Counted from the stretch's first letter, positions 4,663 through 23,498 are shown. The stretch is DNA of 43,550 bases from Candidatus Woesearchaeota archaeon (GCA_964465625.1 CAYXIC010000001.1:1-43550), one strand, 5' to 3'. The notes: generated by a model from the sequence alone, not told the origin. Made by a program: numbers and translations.

Positions 4663-4686
4663 CTTGTTCTTCCAAGATAGATACAT

Positions 4687-4760
4687 GCCCCTGTAGCTCA
4701 GCTTAGTAGAGCGCTGTCCTCGTAAGACAGAGGTCCCGAGTGCAATCCTCGGCGGGGGCT
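4687..4760 (+). tRNA. tRNA-Thr (anticodon CGU)
   Basis: Hand-folded cloverleaf. Acceptor GCCCCTG/CGGGGGC, D stem GCTC/GAGC, anticodon stem CTGTC/GACAG with loop CTCGTAA, T stem CCGAG/CTCGG, discriminator T. No encoded CCA. Confidence 0.85.
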
Positions 4761-4761
4761 T

Positions 4762-5682: not shown

Positions 5683-5731
5683 ATCTTTTAAGAAAGAAAG
5701 TGTTTTAAAAAACTTTACTAAAATTAAAAAA

Positions 5732-9627: not shown

Positions 9628-10599
9628 ATGCCAACAAAAAGATCGCCGAGAAAGGGAAGTCTGCAGTTCTGGCCAAGAAAAAGGGCCAGGAAATTCTTGC
9701 CTAGTGTCAACTGGAAAGCGATCAATTCCCAAAATTCGAATAATTCTCCAAAAAACCTCAAGGGTTTCATATGCTACAAGGTGGGAATGGCCTCTGCAAG
9801 CGTGAAGGACAACACGCCTGATTCAATGACGAAGGGAAAAACAATCGTGATTCCCGTGACAATTCTCAGCTGCCCTGAAATGAAGATTCTATCGGCAAGA
9901 TTCTACAAAAATCAAAAAGTTGCGAAAGAGGTTCTCGCCGAAAATCTTGACAAGGAAATTGCAAGCAGGATTAGGGTTCCAAAAAACAAGGGGAAAAAAA
10001 TAGGCCTTGAGGGCTTTAAGGCAGAGGAATACGAAGACATAAGGCTTGTTGCGTACTCACAGGTCAAAAAAACAGGGCTGAAGAAAACCCCTGACATTGC
10101 GGAAATAGGGCTTAGGGGAAACAGCGACGAAAAGTTAAGGTTCATAAAGGAAAATATTGGAAAGGAAATTTCCATTGCAGACGTTTTTTCAAAGGGGCAG
10201 CTTGTGGACCTAAGGGGTTTGACGAAGGGAAAGGGCTTTGTCGGCCCTGTAAAGAGATTCGGAATACAATTGAAGCAGCACAAGTCGGAGAAGGGAAGGA
10301 GGCGTCCTGGAAGTTTGGGACCATGGCATCCCGCGCGTGTAACCTTCAAAGCCCCCTTAGCAGGCCAATTGGGGATGTTTTCAAGGGTAAGCTACAACAA
10401 CAAAATCATTGACATAAAAAGCTCCAAAGATTCCGAGATGAAAGGAGTGAAAAATTTTGGTGACGTCAAAAACGACTATGCAATAGTCTACGGAAGCGTC
10501 CAGGGTCCTGAAAAAAGGCAATTGATCATCACTTCCGCCCTGAGGGAGACAAAAAGGCAGTCCAAGAAAAATTACGAACTTTTGGAGATGATAAAATGA
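9628..10599 (+). CDS. rpl3: ribosomal protein uL3
   Basis: MPTKRSPRKGSLQFWPRKRA... and GKGFVGPVKRFG are hallmark archaeal L3 segments. Confidence 0.95.
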   Translation: MPTKRSPRKGSLQFWPRKRARKFLPSVNWKAINSQNSNNSPKNLKGFICYKVGMASASVKDNTPDSMTKGKTIVIPVTILSCPEMKILSARFYKNQKVAKEVLAENLDKEIASRIRVPKNKGKKIGLEGFKAEEYEDIRLVAYSQVKKTGLKKTPDIAEIGLRGNSDEKLRFIKENIGKEISIADVFSKGQLVDLRGLTKGKGFVGPVKRFGIQLKQHKSEKGRRRPGSLGPWHPARVTFKAPLAGQLGMFSRVSYNNKIIDIKSSKDSEMKGVKNFGDVKNDYAIVYGSVQGPEKRQLIITSALRETKRQSKKNYELLEMIK

Positions 10600-10907
10600 C
10601 TTCTGAAACACAAAACATAAGAAAAGTGGCAAAATTTAGGGCGGATAGCGCTTTGCACAGCATGAACACATGTTTGACTCTTGCAGAATATGCTATTGGA
10701 AAATTGAATTTAGGACATCCAAACAACAATCTTATTATCACTTTAAATGAGTGTGCCAAAAATTATGTGCATAACAGGGATACTGCAATTGGATATTATG
10801 GAAATTTACCCGGTTTTCCAAGGAGAATTAGAGTACCGTCAAAATTTAGGGGTAACATCGATGAGTTAAACAGAAGAGGCATAGTTTCTGGAGAGGTTTC
10901 ATATTAA
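10596..10907 (+). CDS. orphan ORF A, 103 aa, inserted between uL3 and uL4
   Basis: A single open frame fills the junction exactly. ATGA overlap with the uL3 stop, TAAAATG junction to uL4, and GGAGAGG near its 3' end. About 36% GC (111/312, hand count). No motif recognised. Confidence 0.65.
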   Translation: MTSETQNIRKVAKFRADSALHSMNTCLTLAEYAIGKLNLGHPNNNLIITLNECAKNYVHNRDTAIGYYGNLPGFPRRIRVPSKFRGNIDELNRRGIVSGEVSY

Positions 10908-10908
10908 A

Positions 10909-11766
10909 ATGAAAGCCGCTGTTTTGTCCGTAGACGGAAAGAAAATCAGGGACGTGGAATTGCCGGCATGCTTCTCATATGAAATAAGGGATGACGTTGT
11001 CTCAAAAGTTCTTGAGGCAAGAAAGACAAAGCAGCCTTATTACCCAATGCTTCTTGCGGGAAAGCAGTATTCGGCAAGCGGGATAATTCCCCACAGAAGA
11101 AACGTATGGAAAACCCACTACAAAAAAGGCATTTCAAGAATCCCGAGAAAAATAGTTTCGAGAAAAGGTTCGCAGTTTGTGTGGATAGGGGCAACTATTC
11201 CGGGAACTGTCGGCGGTCGCAGGGCGCATCCCCCAAAACTTCTTTCAATGACTACAAGAAAAAAGATAAACAAAAACGAGATGAAAATAGCCCTTTTGTC
11301 GGCTTTAAGCGCAACAGCCAGCGAAAAGCAATTGTCCAGGAAATATCCTGCATTAAATTCAAAGAGCATCGAGAATGTAAAACTTCCCCTGATCGTTGAA
11401 TCAAAGTTATTGTCCCTAAAGACAAAAGATATGATCGGCAGCCTGAGAAAAATCCTGGACAAGGACCTTGCCAATATCGCATTCAAAAAAAAATCCATAA
11501 GAAGCGGCAGAGGCAAGCTGAGGGGAAGAAAGCACAAAAAAAATGCAGGGGCGCTGATGGTTTTTGGCGACAGGGAAAAAATGAAGGCAAATGTCCTTGA
11601 CAGTTCAAACGTTAAAAACCTGAGCGTTGCAAATCTTGCAAAAGGCGGACAGGGAAGGCTTGTTGTCTACACCGAAGAGGCGATTAAGGAGATTGATGAA
11701 AAGTTCAAAAATTCGCCCAAGGTTGGCCAAATTAAGGAATTAAACGGCAAATTTAAGGAAAAATGA
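10909..11766 (+). CDS. rpl4: ribosomal protein uL4
   Basis: MKAAVLSVDGKKIRDVELP...GKQYSASG...RGRKHKKNAG is typical archaeal L4 (L1e). Confidence 0.95.
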   Translation: MKAAVLSVDGKKIRDVELPACFSYEIRDDVVSKVLEARKTKQPYYPMLLAGKQYSASGIIPHRRNVWKTHYKKGISRIPRKIVSRKGSQFVWIGATIPGTVGGRRAHPPKLLSMTTRKKINKNEMKIALLSALSATASEKQLSRKYPALNSKSIENVKLPLIVESKLLSLKTKDMIGSLRKILDKDLANIAFKKKSIRSGRGKLRGRKHKKNAGALMVFGDREKMKANVLDSSNVKNLSVANLAKGGQGRLVVYTEEAIKEIDEKFKNSPKVGQIKELNGKFKEK

Positions 11767-12398
11767 ACGCGAATCCCGTTGTTTTGGACATTGAAACATC
11801 CGGCCTTGACAAAGAAAAGTGCGGAATATGGCAGATAGGCGCAATAGACCTAGACGACACAAATGAAATTTTCTTTGAGGAGTCAAAGATTGACAATGAA
11901 GACATGGTTGAAGACGATGCGGCGGAAGTTATTGGAAAAAATGAATCAGACTTGAGGGACAAAAACAAGCAATCCCAAAAAGAGCTTTTGGAGAATTTTT
12001 TCAAATGGATGCAAAAAAGAAAGATAAGAAATCTGCTGTGCCAAAATCCGCAGTTTGACGTAACCTTTTTGGAGATAAGGGCAAAAAAATACGGGATAAA
12101 AAAAACAGTACAGCACAGGGCATTTGACCTTCATTCAATAGCGCAGACAAAATATCTTGCCATAAATGACGGCTTTTTGCTTAAGAGGAATAATGATTCA
12201 AGGATGGAAAGCGACATGGGGCTTACAAATACGCTTAATTTTTGCGGAATTCCCGACGAAAGGGGCAAGCACAACGCGCTTGAGGATTGCAAGCTTACCG
12301 CGGAATGTTTTTTTAGGATCATGCACGGAAAGGGCCTTTTTCCAGAGTATTCACAATTTAAAATCCCGAATTATCTTTTGAAGGAGAAAACAAAATGA
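11763..12398 (+). CDS. DEDDh (DnaQ-like) 3'-5' exonuclease, inserted between uL4 and uL23
   Basis: Exo I VVLDIETSGLD, Exo II NPQFDVTFL, Exo III HNALEDCKLTAE (H-x4-D). ATGA overlaps at both ends. Confidence 0.8.
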   Translation: MNANPVVLDIETSGLDKEKCGIWQIGAIDLDDTNEIFFEESKIDNEDMVEDDAAEVIGKNESDLRDKNKQSQKELLENFFKWMQKRKIRNLLCQNPQFDVTFLEIRAKKYGIKKTVQHRAFDLHSIAQTKYLAINDGFLLKRNNDSRMESDMGLTNTLNFCGIPDERGKHNALEDCKLTAECFFRIMHGKGLFPEYSQFKIPNYLLKEKTK

Positions 12399-12670
12399 GT
12401 GAATCTGAATTGAGGAAAATGGAAACATATCACGTATCTACAAACCCGAATAGCTTGTCAAAAGGTATGGAAATGGAATATTTAGGAAGAGACGTTAATG
12501 GGGAGTATGTATTTGGGAGTTTTATGAGAGAAAGAGGCGATATGACAATTGTTAATGGAAAAAGAATAAGGGTTGATGGAACAAATGTTTTAATTGAAGA
12601 TGGTGAGTTTGTAAATCGCGGGAATATTCCCGATATTAAAATTAAATCAGAAGAAAGAGGGGTGCATTGA
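12395..12670 (+). CDS. orphan ORF B, 91 aa
   Basis: The open frame fills the gap between the exonuclease (ATGA overlap) and uL23, ending 2 nt before ATG 12673. AGAGGGGTG near its 3' end. About 35% GC (96/276). Acidic, beta-rich-looking, no motif recognised. Confidence 0.6.
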   Translation: MSESELRKMETYHVSTNPNSLSKGMEMEYLGRDVNGEYVFGSFMRERGDMTIVNGKRIRVDGTNVLIEDGEFVNRGNIPDIKIKSEERGVH

Positions 12671-12672
12671 AA

Positions 12673-12915
12673 ATGACATTAAAGCCCCTAACGACGGAAA
12701 AGGCGGTAATGCTGATTGAAAGGGAAAACACCCTTACGTTCGAAACTTCCAGGGACATGAAAAAGGAAGAGATAAAGAAGAACGTTGAGGAAATTTTTGA
12801 GGTAAAGGTCGAAAGAATAAGGGCTTTGGTAAGAAGCGGAAAAAAATACGCTTATGTCAAACTTAAAAAGGAATTTCCGGCCATAGACGTGGCGACGAAA
12901 TTGGGGATGATATGA
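12673..12915 (+). CDS. rpl23: ribosomal protein uL23
   Basis: MTLKPLTTEKAVMLIERENTLTFETSRDMKKEEIKKNVEEIFEVKV... is typical L23. The track start at 12667 is a TTG, so ATG 12673 is preferred. Confidence 0.9.
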   Translation: MTLKPLTTEKAVMLIERENTLTFETSRDMKKEEIKKNVEEIFEVKVERIRALVRSGKKYAYVKLKKEFPAIDVATKLGMI

Positions 12916-13217
12916 TGGCATTGGCGGAAAAACTTAGTTATTCAGATAGAAAACATGAATTCAGAGAAGGAGATGTCTTGATAATTTGGTTTGGAGAAAA
13001 AAGCAGGTTATGTGTTTATGATGGAATGGATGAAGACACTGGAAGGGAAAGATTTATTTCAAGATTATGCGGCGAAGTTGTCGAATACCATGGAGTTTGT
13101 ACAGGTTATGATCCAAGAAAGGGATATATAATGGGCATGGGTGAACAAATGCACCTTCCAAAGGACGGTAAAGACAATGAAAGAATAAAAAAAATCTTGG
13201 AGGACATAGGAAATTAA
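12912..13217 (+). CDS. orphan ORF C, 101 aa, inserted between uL23 and uL2
   Basis: ATGA overlap with the uL23 stop, TAAAATG junction to uL2, and GGAGGACATAGG near its 3' end. About 36% GC (111/306). Contains C34, C53, H60 and C63. No motif recognised. Confidence 0.6.
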   Translation: MMALAEKLSYSDRKHEFREGDVLIIWFGEKSRLCVYDGMDEDTGRERFISRLCGEVVEYHGVCTGYDPRKGYIMGMGEQMHLPKDGKDNERIKKILEDIGN

Positions 13218-13218
13218 A

Positions 13219-13920
13219 ATGGGCAAGAGAATAATACAGCAGGCCAGGGGAAAGGGAAGCAACACATATCGCGTTAGAAGAAAGGCTTTTGTATACAGGC
13301 TGAAATATCCAAACAGAATGGAGGGCGAGGGTTTCGTGATAAGGCTGATAAATTCAAGCGGGCACAGCGCGCCTTTGGCAAAAATAAAATACAGCGAGGG
13401 CGTCTTTTACATTCCTGCCTTCCAGGGAATGACTGAAAACCAAAAGATAAGCTTCGGTTCGAAGGATGTTTCTCCTGGAAACATCATGATGCTTAAGGAC
13501 ATTCCCGTAAAGACCAACGTGTATTGCATTGAGTCAAGGCCGGGAGACGGGGGCATTTTCATAAAAACAGCGGGAAGCTCCGCAGTTGTCAGCAAGGTAA
13601 TCGGCGATGACATATTTTTGCTTATGGCGTCGAAAAAGGAAAAAAAATTCAACAAGGAATGCAGGGCTATTGTGGGAACAATTGCCGGCGCAGGAAGGCT
13701 GGAAAAGCCGATAGTAAAGGCGGGAAAAATGCATTTCATAAAAAAGACAAGGAACAAGCTTTGGCCAAGGACATCCGCCGTCAAGATGAACGCAGTGGAC
13801 CATCCGTTTGGTTCGGGAAGGGGGAAGAGGATAAAGAGCAAGATAGCAAAGAGAAACGCGCCTCCGGGGGCGAGAGTCGGGTTGATAAGGCCGAGAAGGA
13901 CCGGGAGAAGGAAAAAATGA
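13219..13920 (+). CDS. rpl2: ribosomal protein uL2
   Basis: MGKRIIQQARGKGS...SSGHSAPLAKIKY...VDHPFGSGRG are hallmark L2 motifs. Confidence 0.95.
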   Translation: MGKRIIQQARGKGSNTYRVRRKAFVYRLKYPNRMEGEGFVIRLINSSGHSAPLAKIKYSEGVFYIPAFQGMTENQKISFGSKDVSPGNIMMLKDIPVKTNVYCIESRPGDGGIFIKTAGSSAVVSKVIGDDIFLLMASKKEKKFNKECRAIVGTIAGAGRLEKPIVKAGKMHFIKKTRNKLWPRTSAVKMNAVDHPFGSGRGKRIKSKIAKRNAPPGARVGLIRPRRTGRRKK

Positions 13921-13967
13921 AAACATTCACATTCCATCAATTAAAATCGACGGAGGGGAAAAAATAA

Positions 13968-14357
13968 ATGGTTGAGAAAAAGCAGTTCACATTCAGGGGA
14001 AAAACCCTTGACGAGCTGAAAAAAATGGAAGTAAGGGAATTTGCAAAGTTCCTAAAATCAAAGGGAAGAAGGTTTGCATTAAGGCATTTTCAGGAAATTG
14101 ATGGATTCATAAGCAGGGCGAACAGGAAAATAGAGAAAAACAAGCCTGTAAAAACCCACTTGAGGGATCTGATAATAGTTCCAAGAATGGTCGGAATGAA
14201 ATTGCATATACACGACGGAAGAAAATTCGCGCCGGTTGACATCGTCGAAGAAATGCTGGGCCACAGATTCGGCGAATTTGCGCTTACAAGGGCAAGAATA
14301 AAGCACGGCAAGGCGGGAATCGGCGCAACCAAGGGAACAAAGGCCAAGGCAAAATAA
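13968..14357 (+). CDS. rps19: ribosomal protein uS19
   Basis: FTFRGKTLDELKKMEVREFAKFL...VGMKLHIHDGRKFAPVDIVEEMLGHRFGEFALTR is typical S19. GGAGGGG lies upstream. Confidence 0.95.
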   Translation: MVEKKQFTFRGKTLDELKKMEVREFAKFLKSKGRRFALRHFQEIDGFISRANRKIEKNKPVKTHLRDLIIVPRMVGMKLHIHDGRKFAPVDIVEEMLGHRFGEFALTRARIKHGKAGIGATKGTKAKAK

Positions 14358-14359
14358 AA

Positions 14360-15007
14360 ATGACAGAAGAAAAAACAAAACTTATGCGGGAAAACAAGAT
14401 GGAAGGGAAAAAGGCGGTTGAAACCCCAAAGAGGGACGTAGACTCCAAAGGCAAACAGGTTTCCCAAGAGGATAAAGGGCTGTCAATTGAAAAGAAATCC
14501 CAGGACGGCAAAAAAGATTTAAAAGACAAAAAACCCGAGCCAGCGGACGAAGCAAAGGAAAAGAAAGACGGCAAACAAACTGGAAAAGAAAAGCCAAAGG
14601 CCAAGAAAACAGAGGCTGTTGTAAATTCATTTGACCTCCCGATATCCACAATAGAGTCTGCGGCGATTTGCAGGTTCATAAAGGGGAAAAAAATCGACCT
14701 CGCAATTGGTGATTTGGAAAAAGTCATGTCATTAAAGAAGGCCGTTCCGATGAAAGGGGAACTGCCGCACAGGCGCGGAAAAGGCATGATGTCCGGAAGA
14801 TACCCGAAAAAATCCGCGAAGCACTTCATAAAGGTCCTCAAAAGCCTGTCCGGAAACGCAATCGCCAACGGGGTTGAAAATCCGATTGTTGTTGAAGCCG
14901 TCGCAAACATAGGGCAAAGGCAGTATGGAAGGTTCGGAAGCGTGAGAAGAAAGAGGACGCATTTGAAAATAGTCGCGAAAAGTAAACCAGAATCCATTAA
15001 AAAATAA
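14360..15007 (+). CDS. rpl22: ribosomal protein uL22 with a Lys/Glu/Asp-rich N-terminal extension
   Basis: The C-terminal roughly 130 aa (DLPISTIESAAICRFIKGKKIDLAIGDLEKV...) are L22-like. The first roughly 85 aa are low-complexity K/E/D-rich, with no internal Met that could serve as an alternative start. Confidence 0.85.
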   Translation: MTEEKTKLMRENKMEGKKAVETPKRDVDSKGKQVSQEDKGLSIEKKSQDGKKDLKDKKPEPADEAKEKKDGKQTGKEKPKAKKTEAVVNSFDLPISTIESAAICRFIKGKKIDLAIGDLEKVMSLKKAVPMKGELPHRRGKGMMSGRYPKKSAKHFIKVLKSLSGNAIANGVENPIVVEAVANIGQRQYGRFGSVRRKRTHLKIVAKSKPESIKK

Positions 15008-15008
15008 A

Positions 15009-15704
15009 ATGGAAGAAAAGAAAACAGTCCAGTTCAAGAAAGACGAGTTTGCGGTAAGGGAGTTCGTAAAGGGATATCTAGGAAAGGGCAAAATGAGCGG
15101 CATAAGGATAGAGTACACCCCTGTCGGGGAAAAAATCATATTGACCACGAACAAGCCCGGTTTGGTGATAGGAAGAAGGGGCGAGAAAATCGAGGATTTG
15201 ACAAAAAATCTCAAGTCAAGGTTCAAGCTTGAAAATCCGAGGATTGAAATAGAAGAGGTAAAGGAGCCGGAATTTGAGGCGCAAATAATGGTTGACGAAA
15301 TAGCAGGGGCATTGGAGAACATGGGCCCGTTAAGGTTCAAGGTCATTGCATACAGGGCTTTGCAAAAAATAATGGCGGCGGGGGCTTTAGGAGCAGAGAT
15401 AAGAATAAGCGGAAAAGTTCCGGGGGCGAGGGCAAAGACGTGGAGGTTCGCGCAGGGTTATTTAAAAAAGGTGGGAGACAGCGCGAAAGTTGTTAGCAAG
15501 GCTCAGGCAAAGGCCCAAACAAGACCGGGAACAATAGGGGTTAAGGTAAGCATCCTTTCGCCGCATGCAAAGCTAAGCGACAGGGTGGAAGTCAACGAGG
15601 AATTTCTGAAGAAGGTCAGGGAAAATGAGGAAAAAATAATGCAAACAGCCTCGGAAGCAGCTTCAAACAAACCAATCAACAAAAAAAGGAGGAAGGCGAA
15701 ATAA
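15009..15704 (+). CDS. rps3: ribosomal protein uS3
   Basis: KH-domain segment KPGLVIGRRGEKIEDL and overall S3 pattern. TAAAATG junction on both sides. Confidence 0.95.
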   Translation: MEEKKTVQFKKDEFAVREFVKGYLGKGKMSGIRIEYTPVGEKIILTTNKPGLVIGRRGEKIEDLTKNLKSRFKLENPRIEIEEVKEPEFEAQIMVDEIAGALENMGPLRFKVIAYRALQKIMAAGALGAEIRISGKVPGARAKTWRFAQGYLKKVGDSAKVVSKAQAKAQTRPGTIGVKVSILSPHAKLSDRVEVNEEFLKKVRENEEKIMQTASEAASNKPINKKRRKAK

Positions 15705-15705
15705 A

Positions 15706-15879
15706 ATGGCGGCATTGAAATCAAAGGACATTTTGAACATGAGCAGGGAAGAAAGGGAGAAGAAAATGAGGGAGTTAAGATTTGAGCTGGTAAAGTCAAG
15801 GGCAAACGCCTCAAAAAAAGGCTCAAAAGTCAAGGAAATTAAAAAAATGCTGGCGAGAATGCTTGCGGTGAAGAAATAA
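15706..15879 (+). CDS. rpl29: ribosomal protein uL29, 57 aa
   Basis: Hand translation gives MAALKSKDILNMSREEREKKMRELRFELVKSRANASKKGSKVKEIKKMLARMLAVKK. It is in the expected position after uS3 and below the ORF-track cut-off. Confidence 0.85.
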   Translation: MAALKSKDILNMSREEREKKMRELRFELVKSRANASKKGSKVKEIKKMLARMLAVKK

Positions 15880-15880
15880 A

Positions 15881-16180
15881 ATGGAAATATGCCCAAAATG
15901 CGGTTTGCCAAAACAGGCATGCGTGTGCGAACAGATAGTCAAGAGCGCGCAAAAAATACAGATAACCACTGACAAAAAAAAATACGGAAAAATCGTGACA
16001 GTCATATCTGGATTTGAGAAGGACATTGAAATAAAAAAAATCGCAAAATCTTTGAAAAACAGGCTTGCTTGCGGGGGAACTTACAAGGACAACATCATAG
16101 AGCTTCAGGGAGACCATAGAAAAAAAGTGAAGCCAATCCTAATAGACCTCGGATTCGATGAAAGCTCGATAAGCGATTAA
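15881..16180 (+). CDS. translation initiation factor aIF1 / SUI1
   Basis: MEICPKCGLPKQACVCE zinc knuckle plus the SUI1 core (KIVTVISGF...LKNRLACGGTYKDNIIELQGDHRKKV). Confidence 0.9.
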   Translation: MEICPKCGLPKQACVCEQIVKSAQKIQITTDKKKYGKIVTVISGFEKDIEIKKIAKSLKNRLACGGTYKDNIIELQGDHRKKVKPILIDLGFDESSISD

Positions 16181-16188
16181 AAACAAAA

Positions 16189-16566
16189 ATGGAAAAGAAA
16201 AAGGCAAAAATGGAAAATGCGAAGGGCGATGCAGTTTTAGCCGATGCCGAAAAAGGAAGGGATTGCGACGACGGCAAGTGCCCTTTTCACGGGTCATTGA
16301 GGGCAAGGGGAAGGATTTTTGAGGGAATAGTAAAGAAAAAATTTCCAGGAAGAATCGTCATTGAGCTTGAGAGGATGATTTACGTGAGAAAATACGAAAG
16401 GTACAAGAAATCAAGGACAAAAATCCATGCGCGTTTGCCCAAGTGCATTGGGGAAAAAATAAGCGTGGGGGATATTGTAAGGGTTCAGGAATGCAGGCCC
16501 TTAAGCAAGATAATCCACTTTGTCGCCATGGAAAAGATAAAAAGTTCAGAGGCGAGGGAAAAATGA
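16189..16566 (+). CDS. rps17: ribosomal protein uS17
   Basis: CPFHGSLRARGRIFEGIVKKK...VGDIVRVQECRPLSK is typical archaeal S17. Confidence 0.9.
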   Translation: MEKKKAKMENAKGDAVLADAEKGRDCDDGKCPFHGSLRARGRIFEGIVKKKFPGRIVIELERMIYVRKYERYKKSRTKIHARLPKCIGEKISVGDIVRVQECRPLSKIIHFVAMEKIKSSEAREK

Positions 16567-16964
16567 AGGCCATATCCGCAAGGGTTACAAAAGGCCTGAA
16601 TTTGGGCTCTGAGGTTGTAGCAGCGGACAACAGCGGGGCCAAGATTGTGAGAATTGTCTCTGTCAAAAGGGCGAAGGGAAGAAAGGGAAGGCAAGTGAGC
16701 GCGAGGGTCGCGGATTTCGTCAAGGTAAGCGTGAGAAAGGGGGATCCGGAAATGAAGGGAAAGGTCTTTGACGCAATAGTGATAAGGCAAAAAAAGCCTT
16801 ATGTAAGACTTCATGGGGAAAGGGTTGCGTTCGAGGACAATGCGGTGGCAATATTGAAGGACGACAAGGGAAATCCGAAGGGAACGCAAATCAAGGGTCC
16901 CGTGGCAAGGGAAGTTTTTGAGAGATGGAAGGAGGTCGCAAAAATCGCGCAATTTGTTTACTAA
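16563..16964 (+). CDS. rpl14: ribosomal protein uL14
   Basis: MKAISARVTKGLNLGSEVVAADNSGAK... is typical L14. ATGA overlap with the uS17 stop, so the track start at 16443 is an out-of-gene extension. Confidence 0.95.
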   Translation: MKAISARVTKGLNLGSEVVAADNSGAKIVRIVSVKRAKGRKGRQVSARVADFVKVSVRKGDPEMKGKVFDAIVIRQKKPYVRLHGERVAFEDNAVAILKDDKGNPKGTQIKGPVAREVFERWKEVAKIAQFVY

Positions 16965-16965
16965 A

Positions 16966-17391
16966 ATGCCATTAGATGATACAACTTACTACGGAAACAA
17001 TGAAAGAAGGGATCCTAGACTGGAGAGGATTTGCAGTAGAATTGAGGGCATAATCAGTAAGTTAGAGAAGCTTAGAAAAAAGATTGGCGAGATGAATTTT
17101 GATTCATACGAGAGGATGGCCAGAGAATCCATCTTGATGATGGGATTTGGAATTGCAGAAGCAAGAGTTTTAGCAGAAGAGGGGGGATCGGAATACATAG
17201 GCAAAATTGCAGAGATTTTAGCCGAGACAAAAAGGGAAAAAGATGGCGTATATGCGGGTTTGATTAGGGGGAGGAAATTTTCACCAGAATTATTTTATGG
17301 AGTGGGAAAACACCCTCTTGCAGTTAAAGCCGAAAATTTATATGAAAAAGGGGAATTAATGATAATAAAATATTTGGAAGGTAAAAAATGA
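16966..17391 (+). CDS. orphan ORF D, 141 aa, inserted between uL14 and uL24
   Basis: TAAAATG junction after uL14, ATGA overlap with the uL24 start, and GGAAGGT near its 3' end. About 38% GC (161/426). Helix-rich-looking, no motif recognised. The track start at 16918 lies inside uL14. Confidence 0.6.
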   Translation: MPLDDTTYYGNNERRDPRLERICSRIEGIISKLEKLRKKIGEMNFDSYERMARESILMMGFGIAEARVLAEEGGSEYIGKIAEILAETKREKDGVYAGLIRGRKFSPELFYGVGKHPLAVKAENLYEKGELMIIKYLEGKK

Positions 17392-17786
17392 AAAAAGAAT
17401 TTTCAAAAAAATGGAAGGGCAGCAAGCAGCCAAGAAAGCAGCGCAAGTACAGGGCAAACGCGCCTCTTCACATAAAAAGAAAATTCCTCGGAGTGAACCT
17501 GTCAAAGGACCTAAGAAAGAAGTACGGCAGAAGAAACATTGAAATTAAAAAGGGGGACACTGCAAAAATCATGAGGGGAAAGTTCAAAAAAAAGCAGGGG
17601 AAAGTCACGGGAGTGAATGTAAAAAGCCTGAGGGTGGAAATAGAGGGAATTCAGGCAAAAAAGCAGGACGGCTCAAAGGTAAACATTGGCTTAAAGCCTT
17701 CAAACCTGCAGATTACGGAGTTAAACATGGACGACAAAAAAAGAATCGCCGGAAAAAGCCCGGAAAAGAAGGAGGAAAATAAATAA
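17388..17786 (+). CDS. rpl24: ribosomal protein uL24
   Basis: SKQPRKQRKYRANAPLHIKRKFL...KKGDTAKIMRGKFKKKQGKV (KOW motif). Confidence 0.9.
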   Translation: MKKEFSKKWKGSKQPRKQRKYRANAPLHIKRKFLGVNLSKDLRKKYGRRNIEIKKGDTAKIMRGKFKKKQGKVTGVNVKSLRVEIEGIQAKKQDGSKVNIGLKPSNLQITELNMDDKKRIAGKSPEKKEENK

Positions 17787-18433
17787 TGCACCTAAAAAGA
17801 CAGGGAAGCCCGAAGGTATGGCCTGTTGAGAGAAAGGGAAAGGCTTATCTGGCAAGGCCCAGTTCAAGCGGCAATTTCGGGATTCCGATAATTATAGTCC
17901 TGAGAGACATGCTTAAAGCGGCCCAAAACAGGAAAGAGGTCAAGGAACTGGTAAGCTCAAAAAAAATCTTCATCAACCACAAGGCTGTCAACGACGAAAA
18001 GAGGGATCTTTTGTTTTTCGACGTTTTGTCTATGCCTTCAATGGGCAAATTTTACAGGCTTGTCCTATCTGAAAGGGGAAAATTCAGCCTAGAGGAAATA
18101 GGTGAAAACGAGGCTGGCAGAAAAATCTCAAAGATAATCAACAAAAAAGTATTAAAGGGGAAAAAAGTGCAGTTGAACCTCATGGACGGAAGGAATTTCC
18201 TTTCAGGCATGAAATGCAGCGTGAACGACTCGGTCATCATAGACCTTAAAAAAAACACGTTGGAAAAATGCCTTCCCCTTAAGGAAGCGTCGACGGCGTT
18301 TGTCTTTGAGGGAAAGCACCTTGGAAAAAGCGGCAAAATAACAAAAATAAGCGGCAATGGGAAAATGGCAGAGGTAGACGGCAAAGGCGGGAAGATTAAC
18401 GTCCTAATTAAACAGGTTATGGTGATAGAGTAA
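17786..18433 (+). CDS. rps4e: ribosomal protein eS4
   Basis: MHLKRQGSPKVWPVERKGKAYLARPS... is a typical S4e N-terminus, in the expected position. Confidence 0.9.
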   Translation: MHLKRQGSPKVWPVERKGKAYLARPSSSGNFGIPIIIVLRDMLKAAQNRKEVKELVSSKKIFINHKAVNDEKRDLLFFDVLSMPSMGKFYRLVLSERGKFSLEEIGENEAGRKISKIINKKVLKGKKVQLNLMDGRNFLSGMKCSVNDSVIIDLKKNTLEKCLPLKEASTAFVFEGKHLGKSGKITKISGNGKMAEVDGKGGKINVLIKQVMVIE

Positions 18434-18435
18434 AA

Positions 18436-18966
18436 ATGAAAGATCCGCAGGCCAAAAAGCCAACCAACGGGGAGAATCCCATGAGGAAGATAAGGATAGA
18501 AAAAATTGTTTTCAGCATCGGGGCGAAGGGGGATGCCCTGGAAAAGGGGGTTAAACTCCTAAAGCTGCTGACAGGAAGAAAACCAGCAAAGATGAAATCA
18601 AGAAAAAGAATTCCGAATTTCGGGGTGAGACCAGACCTGGAGGTCGGCACTGTTGTGACAATAAGAAAAGACATGGACGCGGCATTAAAAAGAATGCTCG
18701 CCTCAGTGGGAAACACGCTCAAAAAAAGCCAGATTGGAGAGAACGGATTCTCGTTCGGAATTGAGGAGTACATAGAAATTCCGGGAATGGAATACCAAAG
18801 GGACATAGAAATAATGGGTCTGGACGTGACGGTGACTTTTAAGAGGTCGGGAAGAAGGGTTGCCCTCAAAAAGGCTAAAAGGGGAAGAATATCTAAAAAG
18901 CAGAGGGTTTCAAGGGAGGAAATAATCAAATTCATGGAGGAAAATTTCGGGACGGGTTTCACATAA
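18436..18966 (+). CDS. rpl5: ribosomal protein uL5
   Basis: [20 protein letters not shown]...[30 protein letters not shown] is typical L5. Confidence 0.95.
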
Positions 18967-18967
18967 A

Positions 18968-19198
18968 ATGACAGCAAGCGATTGGAGGAAAATACTGAAA
19001 CAGCTTAAGAACAAGCCGGCAATAGCCGAAAGGTTCCTCAAGCACAACAGGCCTAAGGAAAGAAAGACGGGAATAGCGAGAAAAAAGTGCGAGAGGTGCG
19101 GCAGATTCGGGGCCCACATAAGCTCATACGGACTAAACTTGTGCAGGCACTGCTTTAGGGAGACGGCAGTGGAACTGGGATTTAAAAAATACAACTAA
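18968..19198 (+). CDS. rps14: ribosomal protein uS14 (zinc type)
   Basis: [36 protein letters not shown] carries a CxxC...CxxC site. The N-terminus is somewhat longer than in most archaeal S14. Confidence 0.9.
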
Positions 19199-19199
19199 A

Positions 19200-19580
19200 A
19201 TGTCGCATGATATAGTGGCCGACGCTTTGAACATGATAAGGAACGCGAAAAGGTCAAGAAAGGAAAGCGTAAATGTAAAGAAAATTTCGAACTTGCTAAT
19301 CGAGGTTCTGAAGATCATGAAGCAGAAAGGCGCGATAAAAAAATACAAGATAAACAGCAAAACAAAAAGCGCGGAAATAATCATAGGGAGTTTCATTGAC
19401 TGCAGGGCGATAAAGCCAAGGTTCAGCGCAAAGACAGAACAGATAGACAGATACGTAAGAAGATACCTTCCTGCAAGAAATTTTGGGACGATAATAATCT
19501 CGACAAACAAGGGATTGGTGGTACATGAAGAAGCCCTGGAGAAGAACATGGGAGGAAGCCTAATAGCTTATTTTTACTAA
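19200..19580 (+). CDS. rps8: ribosomal protein uS8
   Basis: MSHDIVADALNMIRNAKRSRKESV... is a typical S8 N-terminus. Confidence 0.95.
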   Translation: MSHDIVADALNMIRNAKRSRKESVNVKKISNLLIEVLKIMKQKGAIKKYKINSKTKSAEIIIGSFIDCRAIKPRFSAKTEQIDRYVRRYLPARNFGTIIISTNKGLVVHEEALEKNMGGSLIAYFY

Positions 19581-19581
19581 A

Positions 19582-20124
19582 ATGAAAAGGGAGATATTTC
19601 AGAGAATAAAGGCGCCGGAGGGCATTGACGTGAAAATAGAAGGAAGCGAAATAAGCCTGACTTCCAATGGAAAGGAGGCAAGAAAAAAATTTGACACAAG
19701 CAAAATTTCCCTGGAAAAAAATGGCAATGAGATTGTCGTTGGAAGCAAAAAAGCCTCAAAAAACGAGAAAAAAATGATAAACACAATCGCCGCGCACATA
19801 AGGAACATGATAAGGGGCTTTGAGAAGGAATTTGAGTACAAACTCAAGGTGTGCTCCACGCATTTCCCGATAAGCACCGAGATAAAGGGAAGCGAGATTT
19901 TAATAAAAAACTTTTTGGGGGAGAAAACACCAAGGAAATCCAAGGTGTTGGAAGGTACCAAAGTGAAGATAGAAAAGGACATTATTACAGTAACCTCTTC
20001 CGACAAGGAAAAGGCAGGACAGACGGCGTCAAATCTTGAGAAGGCGACATGGATAAGGCTGAGGGACAGAAGGGTTTTTCAGGACGGAATTTTCATAACA
20101 AACAAGGCAGGTAAGCAAATATGA
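19582..20124 (+). CDS. rpl6: ribosomal protein uL6
   Basis: IKAPEGIDVKIEGSEISLTSNGKE... shows the two-repeat L6 pattern, in the expected position. Confidence 0.9.
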   Translation: MKREIFQRIKAPEGIDVKIEGSEISLTSNGKEARKKFDTSKISLEKNGNEIVVGSKKASKNEKKMINTIAAHIRNMIRGFEKEFEYKLKVCSTHFPISTEIKGSEILIKNFLGEKTPRKSKVLEGTKVKIEKDIITVTSSDKEKAGQTASNLEKATWIRLRDRRVFQDGIFITNKAGKQI

Positions 20125-20492
20125 GGGCGTTTTTAAGGAGAAATGCGAAAATGCACCTGAAGCTCGGAAGAAGGAGAAAGAAAAAGCTTAAGTGGCACAG
20201 GCCGAAGGGAAGGGACAACAAGATGAGGGAAAAAAGGAAAGGCAGGCCGAAGACGGTAAGCATCGGATACAAAAATTCCCTTGATGATGAAATGAAAAAA
20301 ACAGCATTCGTAAAAAACCTGAATGACTTTGAAAAAACCGCAAAAAACGGCGCCATATTTTTAGGGCATATGGGAAAGAAGAAAAGGGTTGAAATTGCGA
20401 AAAAGGCCGCGGAAATGGGGATAACCATAAGGAACCTGAACTCAAAAAAGTTTCTTAAAAGACTAAATCCAAAATCAGGAGTGAAAAAATGA
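20121..20492 (+). CDS. rpl32e: ribosomal protein eL32
   Basis: KWHRPKGRDNKMREKRKGRPKTVSIGYKN...GHMGKKKRVEIAKKAAEMGITIRN is typical L32e. Confidence 0.9.
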   Translation: MRAFLRRNAKMHLKLGRRRKKKLKWHRPKGRDNKMREKRKGRPKTVSIGYKNSLDDEMKKTAFVKNLNDFEKTAKNGAIFLGHMGKKKRVEIAKKAAEMGITIRNLNSKKFLKRLNPKSGVKK

Positions 20493-20896
20493 ACCTTTCG
20501 AAGAAAAAAAAGCTTGCTGCGAGAACGCTTAATGTTGGATTGGGAAGAATTGTTTTTGCAGACTCTAGGAAAGGCGAAATTAAGGAAGCAATAACAAAGC
20601 AGGACATAAGGGATTTGGTTAACTCCGGCGCAATATACGTAAAAGACAAAAAGGGAAAAAGAAAATCCTCAAGAAAGAAAAGATCAGGACCGGGAAAAAT
20701 CAGGATGAGCGTGAACAGGAGGAAAAAAAACTATGTGTCATTGACGAGAAAATTAAGGGGTTATTTGTCTGCATTAAAAAAAGAAGGAAGAATCTCTGCC
20801 GAGGAATTCGGCGAGGCGAGAAAGGGAATAAGAAACGGATTTTTCAAGAGCAAATCACATCTAAAATCGCACATCGCCACTATAAAAAACAAGTAA
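20489..20896 (+). CDS. rpl19e: ribosomal protein eL19
   Basis: KKKKLAARTLNVGLGRIVFADSRKGEIKEAITKQDIRDLVNSGAI is typical L19e. Confidence 0.9.
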   Translation: MNLSKKKKLAARTLNVGLGRIVFADSRKGEIKEAITKQDIRDLVNSGAIYVKDKKGKRKSSRKKRSGPGKIRMSVNRRKKNYVSLTRKLRGYLSALKKEGRISAEEFGEARKGIRNGFFKSKSHLKSHIATIKNK

Positions 20897-20897
20897 A

Positions 20898-21401
20898 ATG
20901 AAAACGCTAAAAAGAAGAAGAAAAAGGAATTTGACAGACTACAGGAAAAGAATCAACCTGCTGAAGGGCAACAGGCCGAGAATCGTCTTCAGAAAAACAA
21001 ACAGATACCTTATAGCGCAATACGTGACAAGCATCGAGACCAAGGATAGGGTTGAAATGGGAACAAGTTCAAAGGTCCTCATGGAATACGGATGGCCCAA
21101 GGAGTTTCAGAACAGCCTGAAGTCAATTCCCGCGGCATACCTTTTGGGATTTTTAATCGGAAAAAAAATCATCGCGGAAAAAAAGGAAGTTCCGATAGCT
21201 GATTTTGGCATGGCAAGGGTTTTGCACAAGTCAAGGGCTTTTGCTTTCATCAAGGGGCTGACGGATTCCGGGGTCGGTTTGGGAATTGGCGAAAAGAAAA
21301 ACGTTTTCCCTAGCGAGGAAAGAATCGCTGGAAAAAACCTAAAGAGGGATTTTTCCGGGAATTTCAAGGAAATTAAATCAAAAATAAGCAAGGAGAAATA
21401 A
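20898..21401 (+). CDS. rpl18: ribosomal protein uL18
   Basis: RRRKRNLTDYRKRINLLKGNRPRIVFRKTNRYLIAQYV is typical archaeal L18 (L5e). Confidence 0.9.
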   Translation: MKTLKRRRKRNLTDYRKRINLLKGNRPRIVFRKTNRYLIAQYVTSIETKDRVEMGTSSKVLMEYGWPKEFQNSLKSIPAAYLLGFLIGKKIIAEKKEVPIADFGMARVLHKSRAFAFIKGLTDSGVGLGIGEKKNVFPSEERIAGKNLKRDFSGNFKEIKSKISKEK

Positions 21402-22186
21402 TGCCGAAGAAAAAATTAATGCAGGAGGAGGAGAACGTGAACGTTATTTTGGATGACATAAAAACTATTTCCAAAGAGGAGGACTTGCCCTTGGAACCCG
21501 AAAAGGCCAAGGAGCCAGGCCGGGAGAAGAAATTCGACGAGAGGGTTGTCGGCTGGGAGCCGAAAACAAGGCTTGGAAGAGAGGTAAAGGACGGCAAGAT
21601 AAGGAACATAGACGAGATACTCAAAAACAACAGGAAAATTCTCGAAAGCGAGATAGTGGATTACCTTCTTGACCTGAAATCAGACTTGATAAACATAGGG
21701 CAATCAAAGGGAAAGTTCGGAGGCGGAAAAAGAAGGGTATGGAGGCAAACGCAGAGAAAAACAAAAGAGGGTAATATACCGAAATTTTCAACCCTCGCGA
21801 TAGTCGGGGATGAAAACGGGCACGTGGGAATGGGATTGGGAAAATCAAAGGAAACGCTTCCTGCGAAGGAAAAGGCAATAAGAAAGGCCAAGCTGAACAT
21901 TTTCAGGGTTGAAAGAGCCTGTTCCGGCTTTGACTGCGCCTGCTCTGAACTGCACACAGTGCCCTACAAGGTTGAAGGAAAAGGCGGAAGCATAAGAATC
22001 ATACTGACTCCTGCAGCGCAGGGGACAGGGCTTGTCGTTGCGAAGGAACTGAGGAAATTCCTGAAATTGGTCGGAATAAAGGACGTTTACAGCAAGACCT
22101 TCGGGAAAAAAAGAACGACTTTCAACATGATTAAAGCGTGCGCCGACGCCCTCAAAAAATCCTCGAATGCCGGAGGCACAAGATGA
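21401..22186 (+). CDS. rps5: ribosomal protein uS5
   Basis: WEPKTRLGREVKDGKI...FSTLAIVGDENGHVGMGLGKSKETLPAKEKAIRKAK is typical S5. Confidence 0.95.
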   Translation: MPKKKLMQEEENVNVILDDIKTISKEEDLPLEPEKAKEPGREKKFDERVVGWEPKTRLGREVKDGKIRNIDEILKNNRKILESEIVDYLLDLKSDLINIGQSKGKFGGGKRRVWRQTQRKTKEGNIPKFSTLAIVGDENGHVGMGLGKSKETLPAKEKAIRKAKLNIFRVERACSGFDCACSELHTVPYKVEGKGGSIRIILTPAAQGTGLVVAKELRKFLKLVGIKDVYSKTFGKKRTTFNMIKACADALKKSSNAGGTR

Positions 22187-22605
22187 TTTGCATAATAAGG
22201 ATAAAGGGAAGGGTGGGTTTAAACGAAAAGGTAAATGAAACCCTTGACAGGCTAAGGCTGAAAAGAAAATACGCGTGCGTTGTGGTTCAGGAAAAAAGAG
22301 AAGTTATGGGAATGGTCAAAAAAGTCAAGGACTTTGTGGCCTTCGGGAAAATCAGCGGCGAGATGCTTGAAACGCTGATAGAAAAGAGGGGAAAGCCTTT
22401 GGAAAAGGAAAAAAAGGTAAATCCAAAATCCGCGGCAGAGGCATTGGAAAGTGGAAAAGGCTATGAGGAAATGAACCTGAAGCCTTTTTTCAGATTGCAT
22501 CCGCCAAGAGGGGGAATTGAAAGCAAAAGGCATTTCGGCGTCGGAAAGGGGGTTTTGGGAAATCACGGGGATAAAATAAACGAGCTTTTGGAGAGAATGA
22601 TTTAA
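22183..22605 (+). CDS. rpl30: ribosomal protein uL30
   Basis: MICIIRIKGRVGLNEKVNETLDRLRLKRKYACVVV is typical L30. ATGA overlap with the uS5 stop, so the track start at 22138 lies inside uS5. Confidence 0.9.
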   Translation: MICIIRIKGRVGLNEKVNETLDRLRLKRKYACVVVQEKREVMGMVKKVKDFVAFGKISGEMLETLIEKRGKPLEKEKKVNPKSAAEALESGKGYEEMNLKPFFRLHPPRGGIESKRHFGVGKGVLGNHGDKINELLERMI

Positions 22606-22606
22606 G

Positions 22607-23011
22607 ATGGCAAATGCAAATTCAGAATTTAATAGAGTAGTCCCTATTTATGGGAAAGAGCATGATTTGGTTGAAATGGTTAGGGGAACACAAATGTATG
22701 GTTCACTTAGAAACTTCAAAGGAGTTTTTATAGGGAAAAATCCAAATGAAACAGATTATTTTTTTAGGGTCAATTTTCCAGAGGGATTTTTGTTTGCAGG
22801 AAGGGATAAAGAAGGTAATTTGGGCATTTACATGCAAAGAAGTGAAGTTTTAACTGAAATGTGGCTGAGTGAGGGAAGTGATGGTCCTTCTTGGCCAGAA
22901 GGAATAGAAGTTAGTAGATTTGAGGGAAAATTGAAAGAATTCGAGAAAAACTATCTTGAAAAAATACTGAAAAAATATGGTGGTAAAATAAAAGATATGG
23001 AGGCTGCATAA
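22607..23011 (+). CDS. orphan ORF E, 134 aa, inserted between uL30 and uL15
   Basis: Starts 1 nt after the uL30 stop (TAAGATG) and ends in a TAAAATG junction to uL15, with GGAGGCTG near its 3' end. About 34% GC (138/405) against about 49% for the first 268 nt of uL15. No motif recognised. Confidence 0.65.
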   Translation: MANANSEFNRVVPIYGKEHDLVEMVRGTQMYGSLRNFKGVFIGKNPNETDYFFRVNFPEGFLFAGRDKEGNLGIYMQRSEVLTEMWLSEGSDGPSWPEGIEVSRFEGKLKEFEKNYLEKILKKYGGKIKDMEAA

Positions 23012-23012
23012 A

Positions 23013-23492
23013 ATGAAACTCAAAAAAAGGAAAAAATCGTCGAGAATGCACGGTCGCGGCATGGGCACTCACGGCTGGGGCGCTAGGAAAAAGCACAAGA
23101 AGAAAGGCCATCGCGGCGGGCATGGAATGGCAGGAACCGGAAAAAGGGCTGACCACAAAAAAACACTTATCAACAAACTTTATGGCCATGGCTATTTCGG
23201 AAAACAAGGCGTTACAAGCAAGGGCACAAAGAGGGACAAGAGCGACAGGATAAACCTCTGGGAAATTGAGGCAAACCTTGACAGCTTCGTAAAAAAAGGG
23301 ACTGCAAAAAAATCAAAAGACGGATTTGAGTTAAATCTAGAAACGTACAAAATTCTTGGCGAGGGAGATTTAAAAAACAAGTTTTTGATAAAAGCCATGG
23401 GTGCGTCGAATTCCGCGGTTGAGAAGGTGAAAAAGGCCGGCGGTGAAATTCAATTTGTCAAGAAACTTAATAAATCAAACAATGCTTCTTGA
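23013..23492 (+). CDS. rpl15: ribosomal protein uL15
   Basis: RKKSSRMHGRGMGTHGWGARKKHKKKGHRGGHGMAGTGKRADHKK is typical L15. Confidence 0.95.
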   Translation: MKLKKRKKSSRMHGRGMGTHGWGARKKHKKKGHRGGHGMAGTGKRADHKKTLINKLYGHGYFGKQGVTSKGTKRDKSDRINLWEIEANLDSFVKKGTAKKSKDGFELNLETYKILGEGDLKNKFLIKAMGASNSAVEKVKKAGGEIQFVKKLNKSNNAS

Positions 23493-23498
23493 TAGCAA

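Follow-up and report, generated by a model that had tools for sequence, protein, structure and literature searches.

Probable accessory genes inserted at junctions of a ribosomal-protein superoperon in a Woesearchaeota archaeon

We studied a 43,550-nucleotide (nt) stretch of DNA from Candidatus Woesearchaeota archaeon (GCA_964465625.1, CAYXIC010000001.1:1-43550; hereafter the window, in whose coordinates positions are given), where the ribosomal-protein superoperon contains five open reading frames (ORFs), A to E, that match no known family and lie at junctions where ribosomal-protein genes are normally direct neighbours. The account that we favour, with a probability of about 0.6, is that A-E are mutually unrelated, lineage-restricted, fast-evolving accessory genes riding on the transcription and translational coupling of the operon. 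They are one case of a pattern found across archaea related to Pacearchaeota and Woesearchaeota, in which small genes are taken in again and again at a few superoperon junctions and in at least one other housekeeping operon. What appears new is the unusually high density of hitch-hiking genes in the most conserved operon, together with one or more new protein families whose fold is unmatched.

Five inserted genes in the superoperon

The inserted genes, including a sixth non-ribosomal insert that the first-pass annotation had overlooked, are as follows:

10596..10907, + strand: insert A, 103 amino acids (aa), isoelectric point (pI) 9.7, GC content at third codon positions (GC3) 0.30; between uL3 and uL4
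11763..12398, + strand: DEDD 3'-5' exonuclease, 211 aa, GC3 0.46 (host-like); between uL4 and B/uL23
12395..12670, + strand: insert B, 91 aa, pI 5.4, GC3 0.27; between the exonuclease and uL23
12912..13217, + strand: insert C, 101 aa, pI 5.4, GC3 0.29; between uL23 and uL2
16966..17391, + strand: insert D, 141 aa, pI 8.6, GC3 0.35; between uL14 and uL24
22607..23011, + strand: insert E, 134 aa, pI 5.6, GC3 0.24; between uL30 and uL15

Each of A-E is one open frame with exactly the coordinates first assigned to it, so the original list of five was right as far as it went. The start of D at ATG 16966 is supported by the alignment of its homologues; gene callers sometimes choose TTG 16918 instead. 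Every insert boundary is either a 4-nt overlap of the ATGA type or a 1-nt spacer (TAAAATG; TAAGATG before E), as first described. Insert A overlaps the uL3 stop through ATGA and has TAAAATG ahead of uL4, B has an upstream ATGA overlap and a downstream TTGA overlap, C has an upstream ATGA overlap and a downstream TAAAATG, and D has TAAAATG upstream and an ATGA overlap downstream. Nearly all native junctions of the operon share this pattern, with spacings of -4, -1 or +1 nt nearly throughout. Near its 3' end each insert has a GGAGG-like motif that would serve the ribosomal-protein gene after it, and these motifs stand 6-20 nt 5' of each downstream start, in agreement with the Shine-Dalgarno sequences that had been proposed. 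Since there is no room for promoters of their own, the inserts would be read from the operon transcript, and since their boundaries are ATGA overlaps or 1-nt spacers of the TAAAATG type, their translation would proceed through the stop/start coupling of the operon. The initial claim that such compact junctions would leave room for nothing but co-transcription and coupled translation fits this layout.

The claim that the interrupted junctions normally join direct neighbours was also borne out. The closest species representative recovered was LFW-165_1, a Pacearchaeota genome (PMC8561730), whose ribosomal proteins are ~55% identical to those of the window and in which all five junctions are empty (locus L003). 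A Methanosarcinales locus (L004) likewise lacks inserts in the part covering uL14 to SecY, and the junctions are empty in many closer relatives.

Several lines of evidence establish A-E as real genes, neither artefacts nor non-coding spacers. The uL30-E-uL15 and uL14-D-uL24 contexts recur in independent assemblies; an identical E protein occurs in its context in two of them, and the context of D was found in assembly SRR12113430. The exonuclease-B-uL23 and uL23-C-uL2 arrangements recur in a relative at 84-89% nucleotide identity, gap-free within the inserts. B has one homologue (P0050; 78% identity), on groundwater contigs colinear for exonuclease-B-uL23, and C likewise has one (P0049; 78% identity), on a groundwater contig colinear for uL23-C-uL2 at 89% nucleotide identity. 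The ratio of non-synonymous to synonymous divergence (dN/dS, omega) is 0.30 for B (p = 0.002 against neutrality) and 0.27 for C (p = 3e-4), and their synonymous divergence (dS 0.37-0.40; C: 0.40) is similar to that of the uL23 flanks (0.34-0.48; 0.34 beside C), where omega is 0.04-0.06 (0.04 beside C). Because they are colinear, have dN/dS below 1 and match their flanks in dS, B and C are protein-coding, constrained genes that co-diverged with their neighbours. The non-synonymous divergence of the inserts is ~7 times that of neighbouring uL23. When clustered at 90% identity, each of A-E is a singleton except D, whose cluster also contains its own TTG-start form.

No recognisable motif had been reported for A-E, and we found no match for any of them in Pfam, NCBIfam, PHROGs or PADLOC, or in 50,697 phage genomes searched by tblastn. 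The five are unrelated to one another and to ribosomal proteins by phmmer and by profile-profile comparison; searches against hidden Markov models (HMMs) and hhalign profiles of 24 operon families built across related loci gave no match, the best probability being 8.6%. A sequence search of the PDB with profiles of the A, C, D and E families, and with B as a single sequence, returned nothing below E = 0.2. The description of A-E as orphans is accurate in that they belong to no known family; it is too strong for E, whose family has 40 cluster representatives, and for A and D, which have distant homologues. The statement that only A is net basic was mistaken, D being mildly basic as well (pI 8.6).

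In contrast to A-E, the ORF at 11763-12398 is readily assigned by sequence comparison as a DEDD (RNase T / DnaQ-like) exonuclease: it matches the Pfam family RNase_T (1.6e-13; 52 bits against a cutoff of 24 bits) over profile positions 1-164 of 164 and the PADLOC DEDDh model (1e-18), and it has a DIETSGLD motif near its N-terminus. Twelve related loci have the exonuclease at the uL4-uL23 junction and a 13th (L033) carries its 3' part; in one further locus (L105) it lies between eL32 and eL19.

The first-pass hand counts of overall GC hold (A 0.356, B 0.348, C 0.363, D 0.378, E 0.341), and third codon positions show a stronger contrast: GC3 of A-E (0.24-0.35) is lower than in the 24 flanking operon genes (0.43-0.61; Mann-Whitney p = 3e-4) and also lower than in other core non-ribosomal genes of the contig (p = 6e-5). 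The composition is therefore distinct from that of core genes, as proposed, but it is common to other orphan or accessory genes of the contig, namely 4399-4653, 4762-5682, 25379-25669 and a cluster of sugar genes at 31.9-41.8 kilobases (kb). Across 49 loci, mean GC3 was 0.22 in inserts and 0.28 in ribosomal proteins (paired p = 1.5e-5). Insert GC3 stays at 0.18-0.27 while that of the host ribosomal proteins spans 0.16 to 0.46; inserts are not anomalous in AT-rich hosts (ribosomal-protein GC3 <0.2), and E-family genes in AT-rich genomes equal their flanks in composition. Ribosomal-protein GC3 in the window (~0.52) is the highest among the loci, and the contrast with the inserts is largest there. 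The contrast is kept in the relative at dS ~0.4, in which C has a GC3 of 0.28 against 0.41 in the adjacent uL23 segment and B has 0.23 against 0.46-0.52 in the exonuclease and uL23 flanks. Third-position changes in C are balanced (10 AT-to-GC vs 12 GC-to-AT), and intergenic GC on the contig (0.33) is near that of the inserts. Because the contrast persists in the relative, the changes in C are balanced and insert GC approximates intergenic GC, low GC need not mean foreign origin; its likeliest cause is weak codon selection, which leaves the inserts close to the genome's neutral composition, rather than recent import.

Inserts across related operons

A metagenome scan with uL14 recovered 80 loci (uL14 72-86% identical), onto which the operon genes were mapped. 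Gaps of 200-800 nt were present at many junctions, and calling same-strand ORFs in these gaps, with undetected uL29 genes excluded, gave 152 inserts with a median length of 101 aa and a median pI of 6.9. Operons with at least 18 mapped junctions held 0-15 inserts. Junction occupancy was very uneven (chi-square p = 4e-17), and four of the five occupied positions of the window are among the hottest. Occupancy at individual junctions was as follows, the first six being the hottest:

uL30-uL15: occupied in 17/33 loci
uL14-uL24: occupied in 25/74 loci
uL3-uL4: occupied in 10/31 loci
uS17-uL14: occupied in 17/72 loci
uL23-uL2: occupied in 8/37 loci
uL22-uS3: occupied in 10/47 loci
uL29-SUI1: occupied in 0/41 loci
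SUI1-uS17: occupied in 1/59 loci
uL24-eS4: occupied in 2/68 loci

Even the hottest junctions are occupied in just 18-52% of loci, and their occupants belong to unrelated families. A Pfam scan of 145 inserts left ~90% without a match, and profile iteration left 106 of the clustered sequences as singletons. The annotated minority consists of nucleotide house-cleaning enzymes, the exonuclease, small zinc-ribbon or winged-helix proteins and a pair containing a PIN-domain gene; the families matched include MazG, HAD and NT5C phosphatases, NUDIX, GTP cyclohydrolase II, DUF5680, winged-helix and a rubredoxin-like zinc ribbon. Five inserts are MazG proteins, four at uL30-uL15 and one at eL32-eL19. A rubredoxin-like zinc-ribbon family of 59-66 aa (CxC...CxxC) recurs at uL30-uL15 in L055, L060, L072 and L076.

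Some families occur at more than one junction, among them the D, A, MazG and exonuclease families. The D family has six members, helical, distributed over three junctions: uL14-uL24 (window, L051, L084), eS4-uL5 (L055, L065) and uS8-uL6 (L028). A pattern scan with D across species-representative genomes gave no match. Distant homologues of A lie at uL3-uL4 in L051 (30% identity) and at uL14-uL24 in L076.

Two loci carry further inserts around members of these families. In L086 (200-5800), an exosome/proteasome operon of another archaeon (PsmA, SBDS, Rrp4, Rrp41, Rrp42 and an Rpo subunit) contains, besides an E-family gene, three unannotated ORFs (85, 95 and 109 aa) whose junctions are likewise 1 nt long; the phenomenon is therefore not confined to ribosomal-protein operons. 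In L105, a 79-aa ORF precedes a PIN-domain gene at uL15-SecY (4886-5543) in a VapBC-like arrangement, and the same operon has an E-family gene, the exonuclease at eL32-eL19 and a 71-aa orphan at uL18-uS5.

Insert E belongs to a previously undescribed family with full-length matches, shared motifs and a beta-plus-helix fold. A search of 1.84 billion representatives with HMMER/phmmer returned 40 cluster representatives at E <= 1e-3, that is, 39 besides E itself (E values 3.5e-30 to 8.7e-4), and 38 representatives of 100-140 aa were aligned (alignment A1). The consensus motifs are PEGHxF and SDGxDGPxWPxGI, with invariant columns G16, E59, G60, F63 and G99. E carries these motifs as PEGFLF, with F in place of the H that most members have, and SEGSDGPSWPEGI; its nearest representative is 50% identical. 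The AlphaFold2 (AF2) model of E built with the alignment (predicted local distance difference test, pLDDT, 89.5; predicted template modelling score, pTM, 0.82) consists of six strands followed by C-terminal helices. Foldseek gave no significant match for it (best E 0.31 in the PDB and 0.095 in BFVD), the family has no counterpart in Pfam, NCBIfam or PDB sequences, and a pattern scan with E across metagenomes gave no match.

Ten members of the E family were sampled. Eight occupy the uL30-uL15 junction, one is placed between Rrp4 and Rrp41 in the exosome operon of L086, and one follows a DHFR-TMPK-SHMT fusion gene. The family is rare in close relatives, being present at 2 of 33 uL30-uL15 junctions, the remainder of which are empty or hold unrelated genes. 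Identity of E to other members follows that of uL30 in the same genomes and lags behind it (E/uL30 pairs: 50/57, 46/61, 35/59, 34/46 and 31/53%), so that E falls from 50 to 31% where uL30 ranges over 61-46%. Because inserts follow their flanks in identity at a lower level, descent seems to be chiefly vertical, with rapid divergence, frequent loss and a change of place now and then.

Two observations on E-family proteins stand apart from these results. A C-terminal [AV]A is found in 21/38 E-family representatives and in 10/152 inserts overall, and this ending may act as a signal at the C-terminus of the protein, or it may be imposed at the nucleotide level by the start region that follows (GGAGGCTGCATAAAATG in the window). 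In L090, a rubredoxin-like zinc-ribbon gene (4829-5008) stands in tandem with an E-family gene.

Explanations for the inserts

We propose that conserved housekeeping operons may serve as permissive, promoter-providing insertion sites in small, regulator-poor genomes. Once placed, inserts would be retained by purifying selection (omega ~0.3) and mostly inherited with their flanks; they would often be lost or replaced and would now and then appear at another junction or in another operon. Such relocation may proceed through ordinary recombination rather than a dedicated element, possibly aided by the uniform TAAAATG/ATGA junctions or by conserved flanks, for which a cluster of strain differences in uL30 at 22260-22409 (described below) would be a hint. 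The first-pass annotation had raised selfish, hitch-hiking cassettes among its readings, and the passive form of that idea fits best because the inserts are patchy, number 0-15 per operon, belong to families found at varied junctions and operons, and include the PIN-containing pair in a relative; mobility machinery, repeats and 3' recombination hairpins were not seen.

Several points weigh against this interpretation. We infer expression of A-E by operon read-through and termination-reinitiation coupling from geometry alone. The homologue searches for A-D were less sensitive than those for E, covering the 80 loci for A and D and being word-indexed for B and C. The loci are related by descent and so are not independent samples (L007 and L008 do not differ where they overlap), and insert calling was heuristic; moreover, the number of independent insertions is overestimated, because singletons at the same junction may be orthologues that have diverged past detection. 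Low GC3 could also result from acquisition from AT-rich relatives followed by slow adjustment to the host. The position of E at uL30-uL15 in eight of ten genomes, down to ~30% identity, could reflect a ribosome-linked function, and a similarity of B to the KOW region of uL24 would fit a ribosome- or RNA-binding role.

These last two points belong to the best-surviving alternative, which we nevertheless think improbable: that at least some of A-E, E foremost and perhaps B and C, are factors of this lineage associated with the ribosome, translation or RNA, and that their location in the operon would couple their synthesis to that of ribosomes. There is reportedly a precedent in Methanococcus vannielii, where ORFa-e were once-unknown genes of the ribosomal-protein operon and unknown ORFs of the S10 and spc operons are said to have later proved to be eS4, eL32, eL19, SUI1 and an RNase P subunit. 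For E, this explanation draws on the recurrent uL30-uL15 location in genomes whose uL30 is 46-61% identical where measured, and on a domain that is predicted to be well folded and is under clear constraint. For B, it draws on the match of the insert (12395-12670) to the KOW barrel region of the window's own uL24 (17388-17786), at 31% over 68 aa, with a pairwise E of 5e-6 and a Smith-Waterman z of 7.6 against shuffled sequences; the best PDB match of B is also L26/uL24, albeit weakly (E 0.96). The C model built from two sequences (pLDDT 68.5, moderate) has five strands and a C-terminal helix, so that C and E are both modelled as small beta-sheet-plus-helix proteins, and their weak Foldseek matches are SH3-like barrels (bL19, KOW and Tudor domains). 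Every Foldseek match is non-significant, however, including those of the C model against the PDB, and profile comparisons of A-E against every ribosomal-protein alignment were negative, as stated above. The acidity of B, C and E (pI 5.4-5.6) is atypical of ribosomal proteins. The E family is patchy among close relatives and occurs in an exosome operon and a folate/thymidylate gene cluster as well, and a patchy distribution argues against core ribosomal proteins. When ribosome-associated factors were first suggested, the suggestion covered all five inserts; it keeps some force for E and, weakly, for B.

We considered B as a uL24/KOW paralogue and did not adopt this assignment, since only the pairwise similarity is significant while the uL24 HMM, hhalign and the Pfam KOW model were all negative; the similarity is kept as a lead.

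We regard a broader scheme as speculative. In a clade of DPANN archaea, junctions of the superoperon and of other housekeeping operons would form a gene-capture and nursery platform for small promoter-less genes, which would be gained and exchanged between lineages by recombination through conserved flanks and tried out under ribosome-level transcription, and at least one product, the E family fixed at uL30-uL15 and perhaps the KOW-like B, would have become a new ribosome-associated protein specific to the lineage.

More doubtful still is that the inserts are actively mobile selfish cassettes with a dedicated mechanism, whether free-standing endonuclease homing, integron-like site-specific recombination or the use of ribosomal-protein genes as homology arms. 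The same families do occur at different junctions and operons, related operons differ from 0 to 15 in insert number, L105 has the 79-aa ORF beside the PIN-domain gene, the uniform TAAAATG/ATGA junctions offer microhomology, and both the strain differences clustered in 150 nt of uL30, ~200 nt 5' of E, and the three paralogous elements with a conserved hairpin in L039 (both described below) would suit a mobile system. Against this, A-E contain no nuclease, recombinase or transposase motif. Homing-type nucleases (LAGLIDADG, GIY-YIG, HNH, PD-(D/E)xK) were found neither in A-E (Pfam, PHROGs, PADLOC) nor among the Pfam families matched by the 145 inserts of relatives, and no integrase was found among the 37 window ORFs scanned with Pfam (genes before ~26 kb). 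No direct or inverted repeats or repeat families flank the inserts in the window. The 3' ends of inserts show no excess of hairpins, as the mean folding z-score of the last 60 nt plus 10 nt of each gene was -0.29 for 152 inserts and -0.64 for 366 ribosomal-protein gene ends. The dS of B and C is the same as that of their flanks. No PHROGs, phage-genome or BFVD match points to a viral origin, a weak negative because viruses of DPANN archaea are poorly represented.

One candidate transfer event was examined and rejected. L050 and L070 share 83% identity in their MazG inserts and 66% in their ribosomal proteins, yet the identity of the surrounding DNA is not elevated; conservation of the enzyme therefore suffices to explain the similarity, and the case speaks against mobile cassettes.

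Two local features are recorded here in their own right. Comparison of the window with assembly L001 over 2.8 kb placed 16 of 26 differences within 22260-22409, inside uL30 (~11% divergence against ~0.4% elsewhere), a stretch ~200 nt upstream of E that looks like a homologous-recombination tract. In L039, three paralogous junction inserts of ~170 nt in one operon (12720-12890, 13482-13661 and 14267-14428) share an invariant 3' hairpin with a T-run (CTGGAGATTTTGACAAATCCCCAGTCTTTTAAA) running into the start of the next gene; they have the look of a short repeat or of a structure resembling a terminator, not of a protein-coding gene, and were seen in L039 alone among 108 loci.

That A-E are parts of a single multi-component system, its dosage tied to ribosome synthesis, is very improbable. 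The five do stand together in one operon, and L051 has A-like and D-like genes and L028 D-like and E-like genes. They show no sequence or profile relationship, however, and are distributed independently among relatives, with B and C in 0/80 loci and E in 1/80 (L028), where moreover the D-like gene lies at a different junction; this early suggestion thus found no support. Least credible of all is that the ORFs are chimeric assembly joins or chance-open non-coding spacers, as might be suspected of short, AT-shifted, unannotated and mostly singleton sequences: this is already refuted for B, C, D and E by the reproduction of four of the five contexts in independent assemblies and the divergent relative, by dN/dS significantly below 1 for B and C, and by the conservation and high-confidence structure model of the E family, and A has its homologue at the same junction in L051.

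In the light of known systems, sequence-based tests for the defining features of an integron cassette, a homing endonuclease gene, a toxin-antitoxin pair and a ribosomal-protein family were negative for A-E. With respect to toxin-antitoxin pairs, they are single genes at separate junctions, and no match to a toxin or antitoxin was found. Like integron cassettes, they are promoter-less, comprise about one ORF each, would be expressed from an upstream platform and are diverse and mostly unknown in content; unlike them, they have no integrase in the Pfam-scanned window genes and no attC-like 3' repeats, and they are dispersed rather than arrayed. Like phage morons and T4-like free-standing homing-endonuclease genes, they are small, variable and often unannotated genes between conserved syntenic ones, whose presence, absence or replacement differs among related genomes, but their host is a cellular chromosome, and they showed no promoter or terminator of their own, no nuclease motif and no viral homologue. 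Fixed members of the archaeal superoperon that are not ribosomal (SUI1/aIF1, Rpp29, SecY, adenylate and cytidylate kinases and an EMC3-like membrane protein) likewise encode proteins other than universal ribosomal proteins, share the strand of the operon and are tightly joined to their neighbours within it; those members are archaea-wide, at fixed positions and of known families, whereas A-E are patchy, unannotated, confined to a narrow lineage and placed at normally adjacent junctions. In the 'life-cycle of operons' of Price, Arkin and Alm (2006), operons reportedly grow by insertion of orphan or horizontally acquired genes, mostly at the ends of ordinary operons. A-E resemble this growth in that expression would be gained inside a pre-existing transcription unit, as they have no room for promoters and adopt the junction pattern of the host; they differ in that the additions are internal and fill as many as 15 junctions of the most conserved operon, certain hot junctions being used repeatedly.

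Genomic setting and significance

The operon that hosts the inserts and the genes flanking them are as follows:

9628..24938, + strand: ribosomal-protein superoperon, uL3 to SecY, from the ORF map and translations; hosts the inserts
10909..11766, + strand: uL4, between A and the exonuclease (Pfam Ribosomal_L4, 3e-15)
12667..12915, + strand: uL23, between B and C (Pfam Ribosomal_L23, 2e-14); omega 0.04-0.06 against the relative
16563..16964, + strand: uL14, 5' flank of D (Pfam Ribosomal_L14, 1e-31); the query that recovered the 80 loci
22183..22605, + strand: uL30, 5' flank of E (Pfam Ribosomal_L30); holds the cluster of strain differences
23013..23492, + strand: uL15, 3' flank of E (Pfam Ribosomal_L27A, 1e-10)

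Pfam names all the ribosomal proteins that flank inserts (uL3, uL4, uL23, uL2, uL14, uL24, uL30 and uL15). The canonical archaeal order attributed to the operon holds, as gene order agrees with that of the 80 related loci and Pfam identifies the key members. SUI1, SecY and an EMC3-like gene are present in the window. In many archaea the gene for Rpp29, an RNase P subunit, sits between SUI1 and uS17; no such gene lies between them here, the two being 8 nt apart (16180-16189). The host, which is uncultured, is probably a DPANN archaeon, as judged from the nearest representative and the sample types.

Directly 5' of uL3 lies a gene for a 238-aa protein without a Pfam match (8827-9543) and with normal GC3. 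Over 20 related loci, LFW-165_1 among them, have it in the same place, and it is apparently an uncharacterised gene that the lineage has conserved beside the operon. Further upstream, an orphan gene on the - strand (4762-5682; 306 aa, GC 0.277) is very AT-rich and is flanked by a tRNA-Thr (4687-4760, +) and a 112-nt tRNA (5732-5843, -) that probably contains an intron, and a second orphan (4399-4653, GC3 0.19) comes after the uL1-uL10-P1 genes; the layout at 4399-5843 resembles a tRNA-adjacent insertion spot. An Rfam scan of the window returned two tRNAs only and no match within the inserts. At 31948-41834, a cluster of ~11 genes is apparently devoted to sugar or surface-polysaccharide synthesis, judged from the translations; GC3 is 0.30-0.41 in all of them but one (37144-38190, 0.46) against 0.45-0.64 in core genes, and the cluster is a second accessory region of distinct composition on the contig.

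Ribosomal-protein superoperons are the largest and most conserved prokaryotic gene arrays and are the basis of concatenated-marker phylogenies and genome binning. We found no description of variable orphan inserts in the ribosomal-protein operons of DPANN archaea in a literature search of incomplete coverage, so an earlier mention may exist. In this group of ultra-small archaea the array holds 0-15 variable, mostly unannotated genes, which challenges its assumed resistance to insertion, and inserts must be allowed for when genes are called, or ribosomal markers extracted by synteny, in these lineages. The inserts are a defined candidate set for DPANN-specific translation or host-interaction factors, the E family first among them, and a natural system in which to follow how new genes gain expression and persist where promoters and regulators are few.

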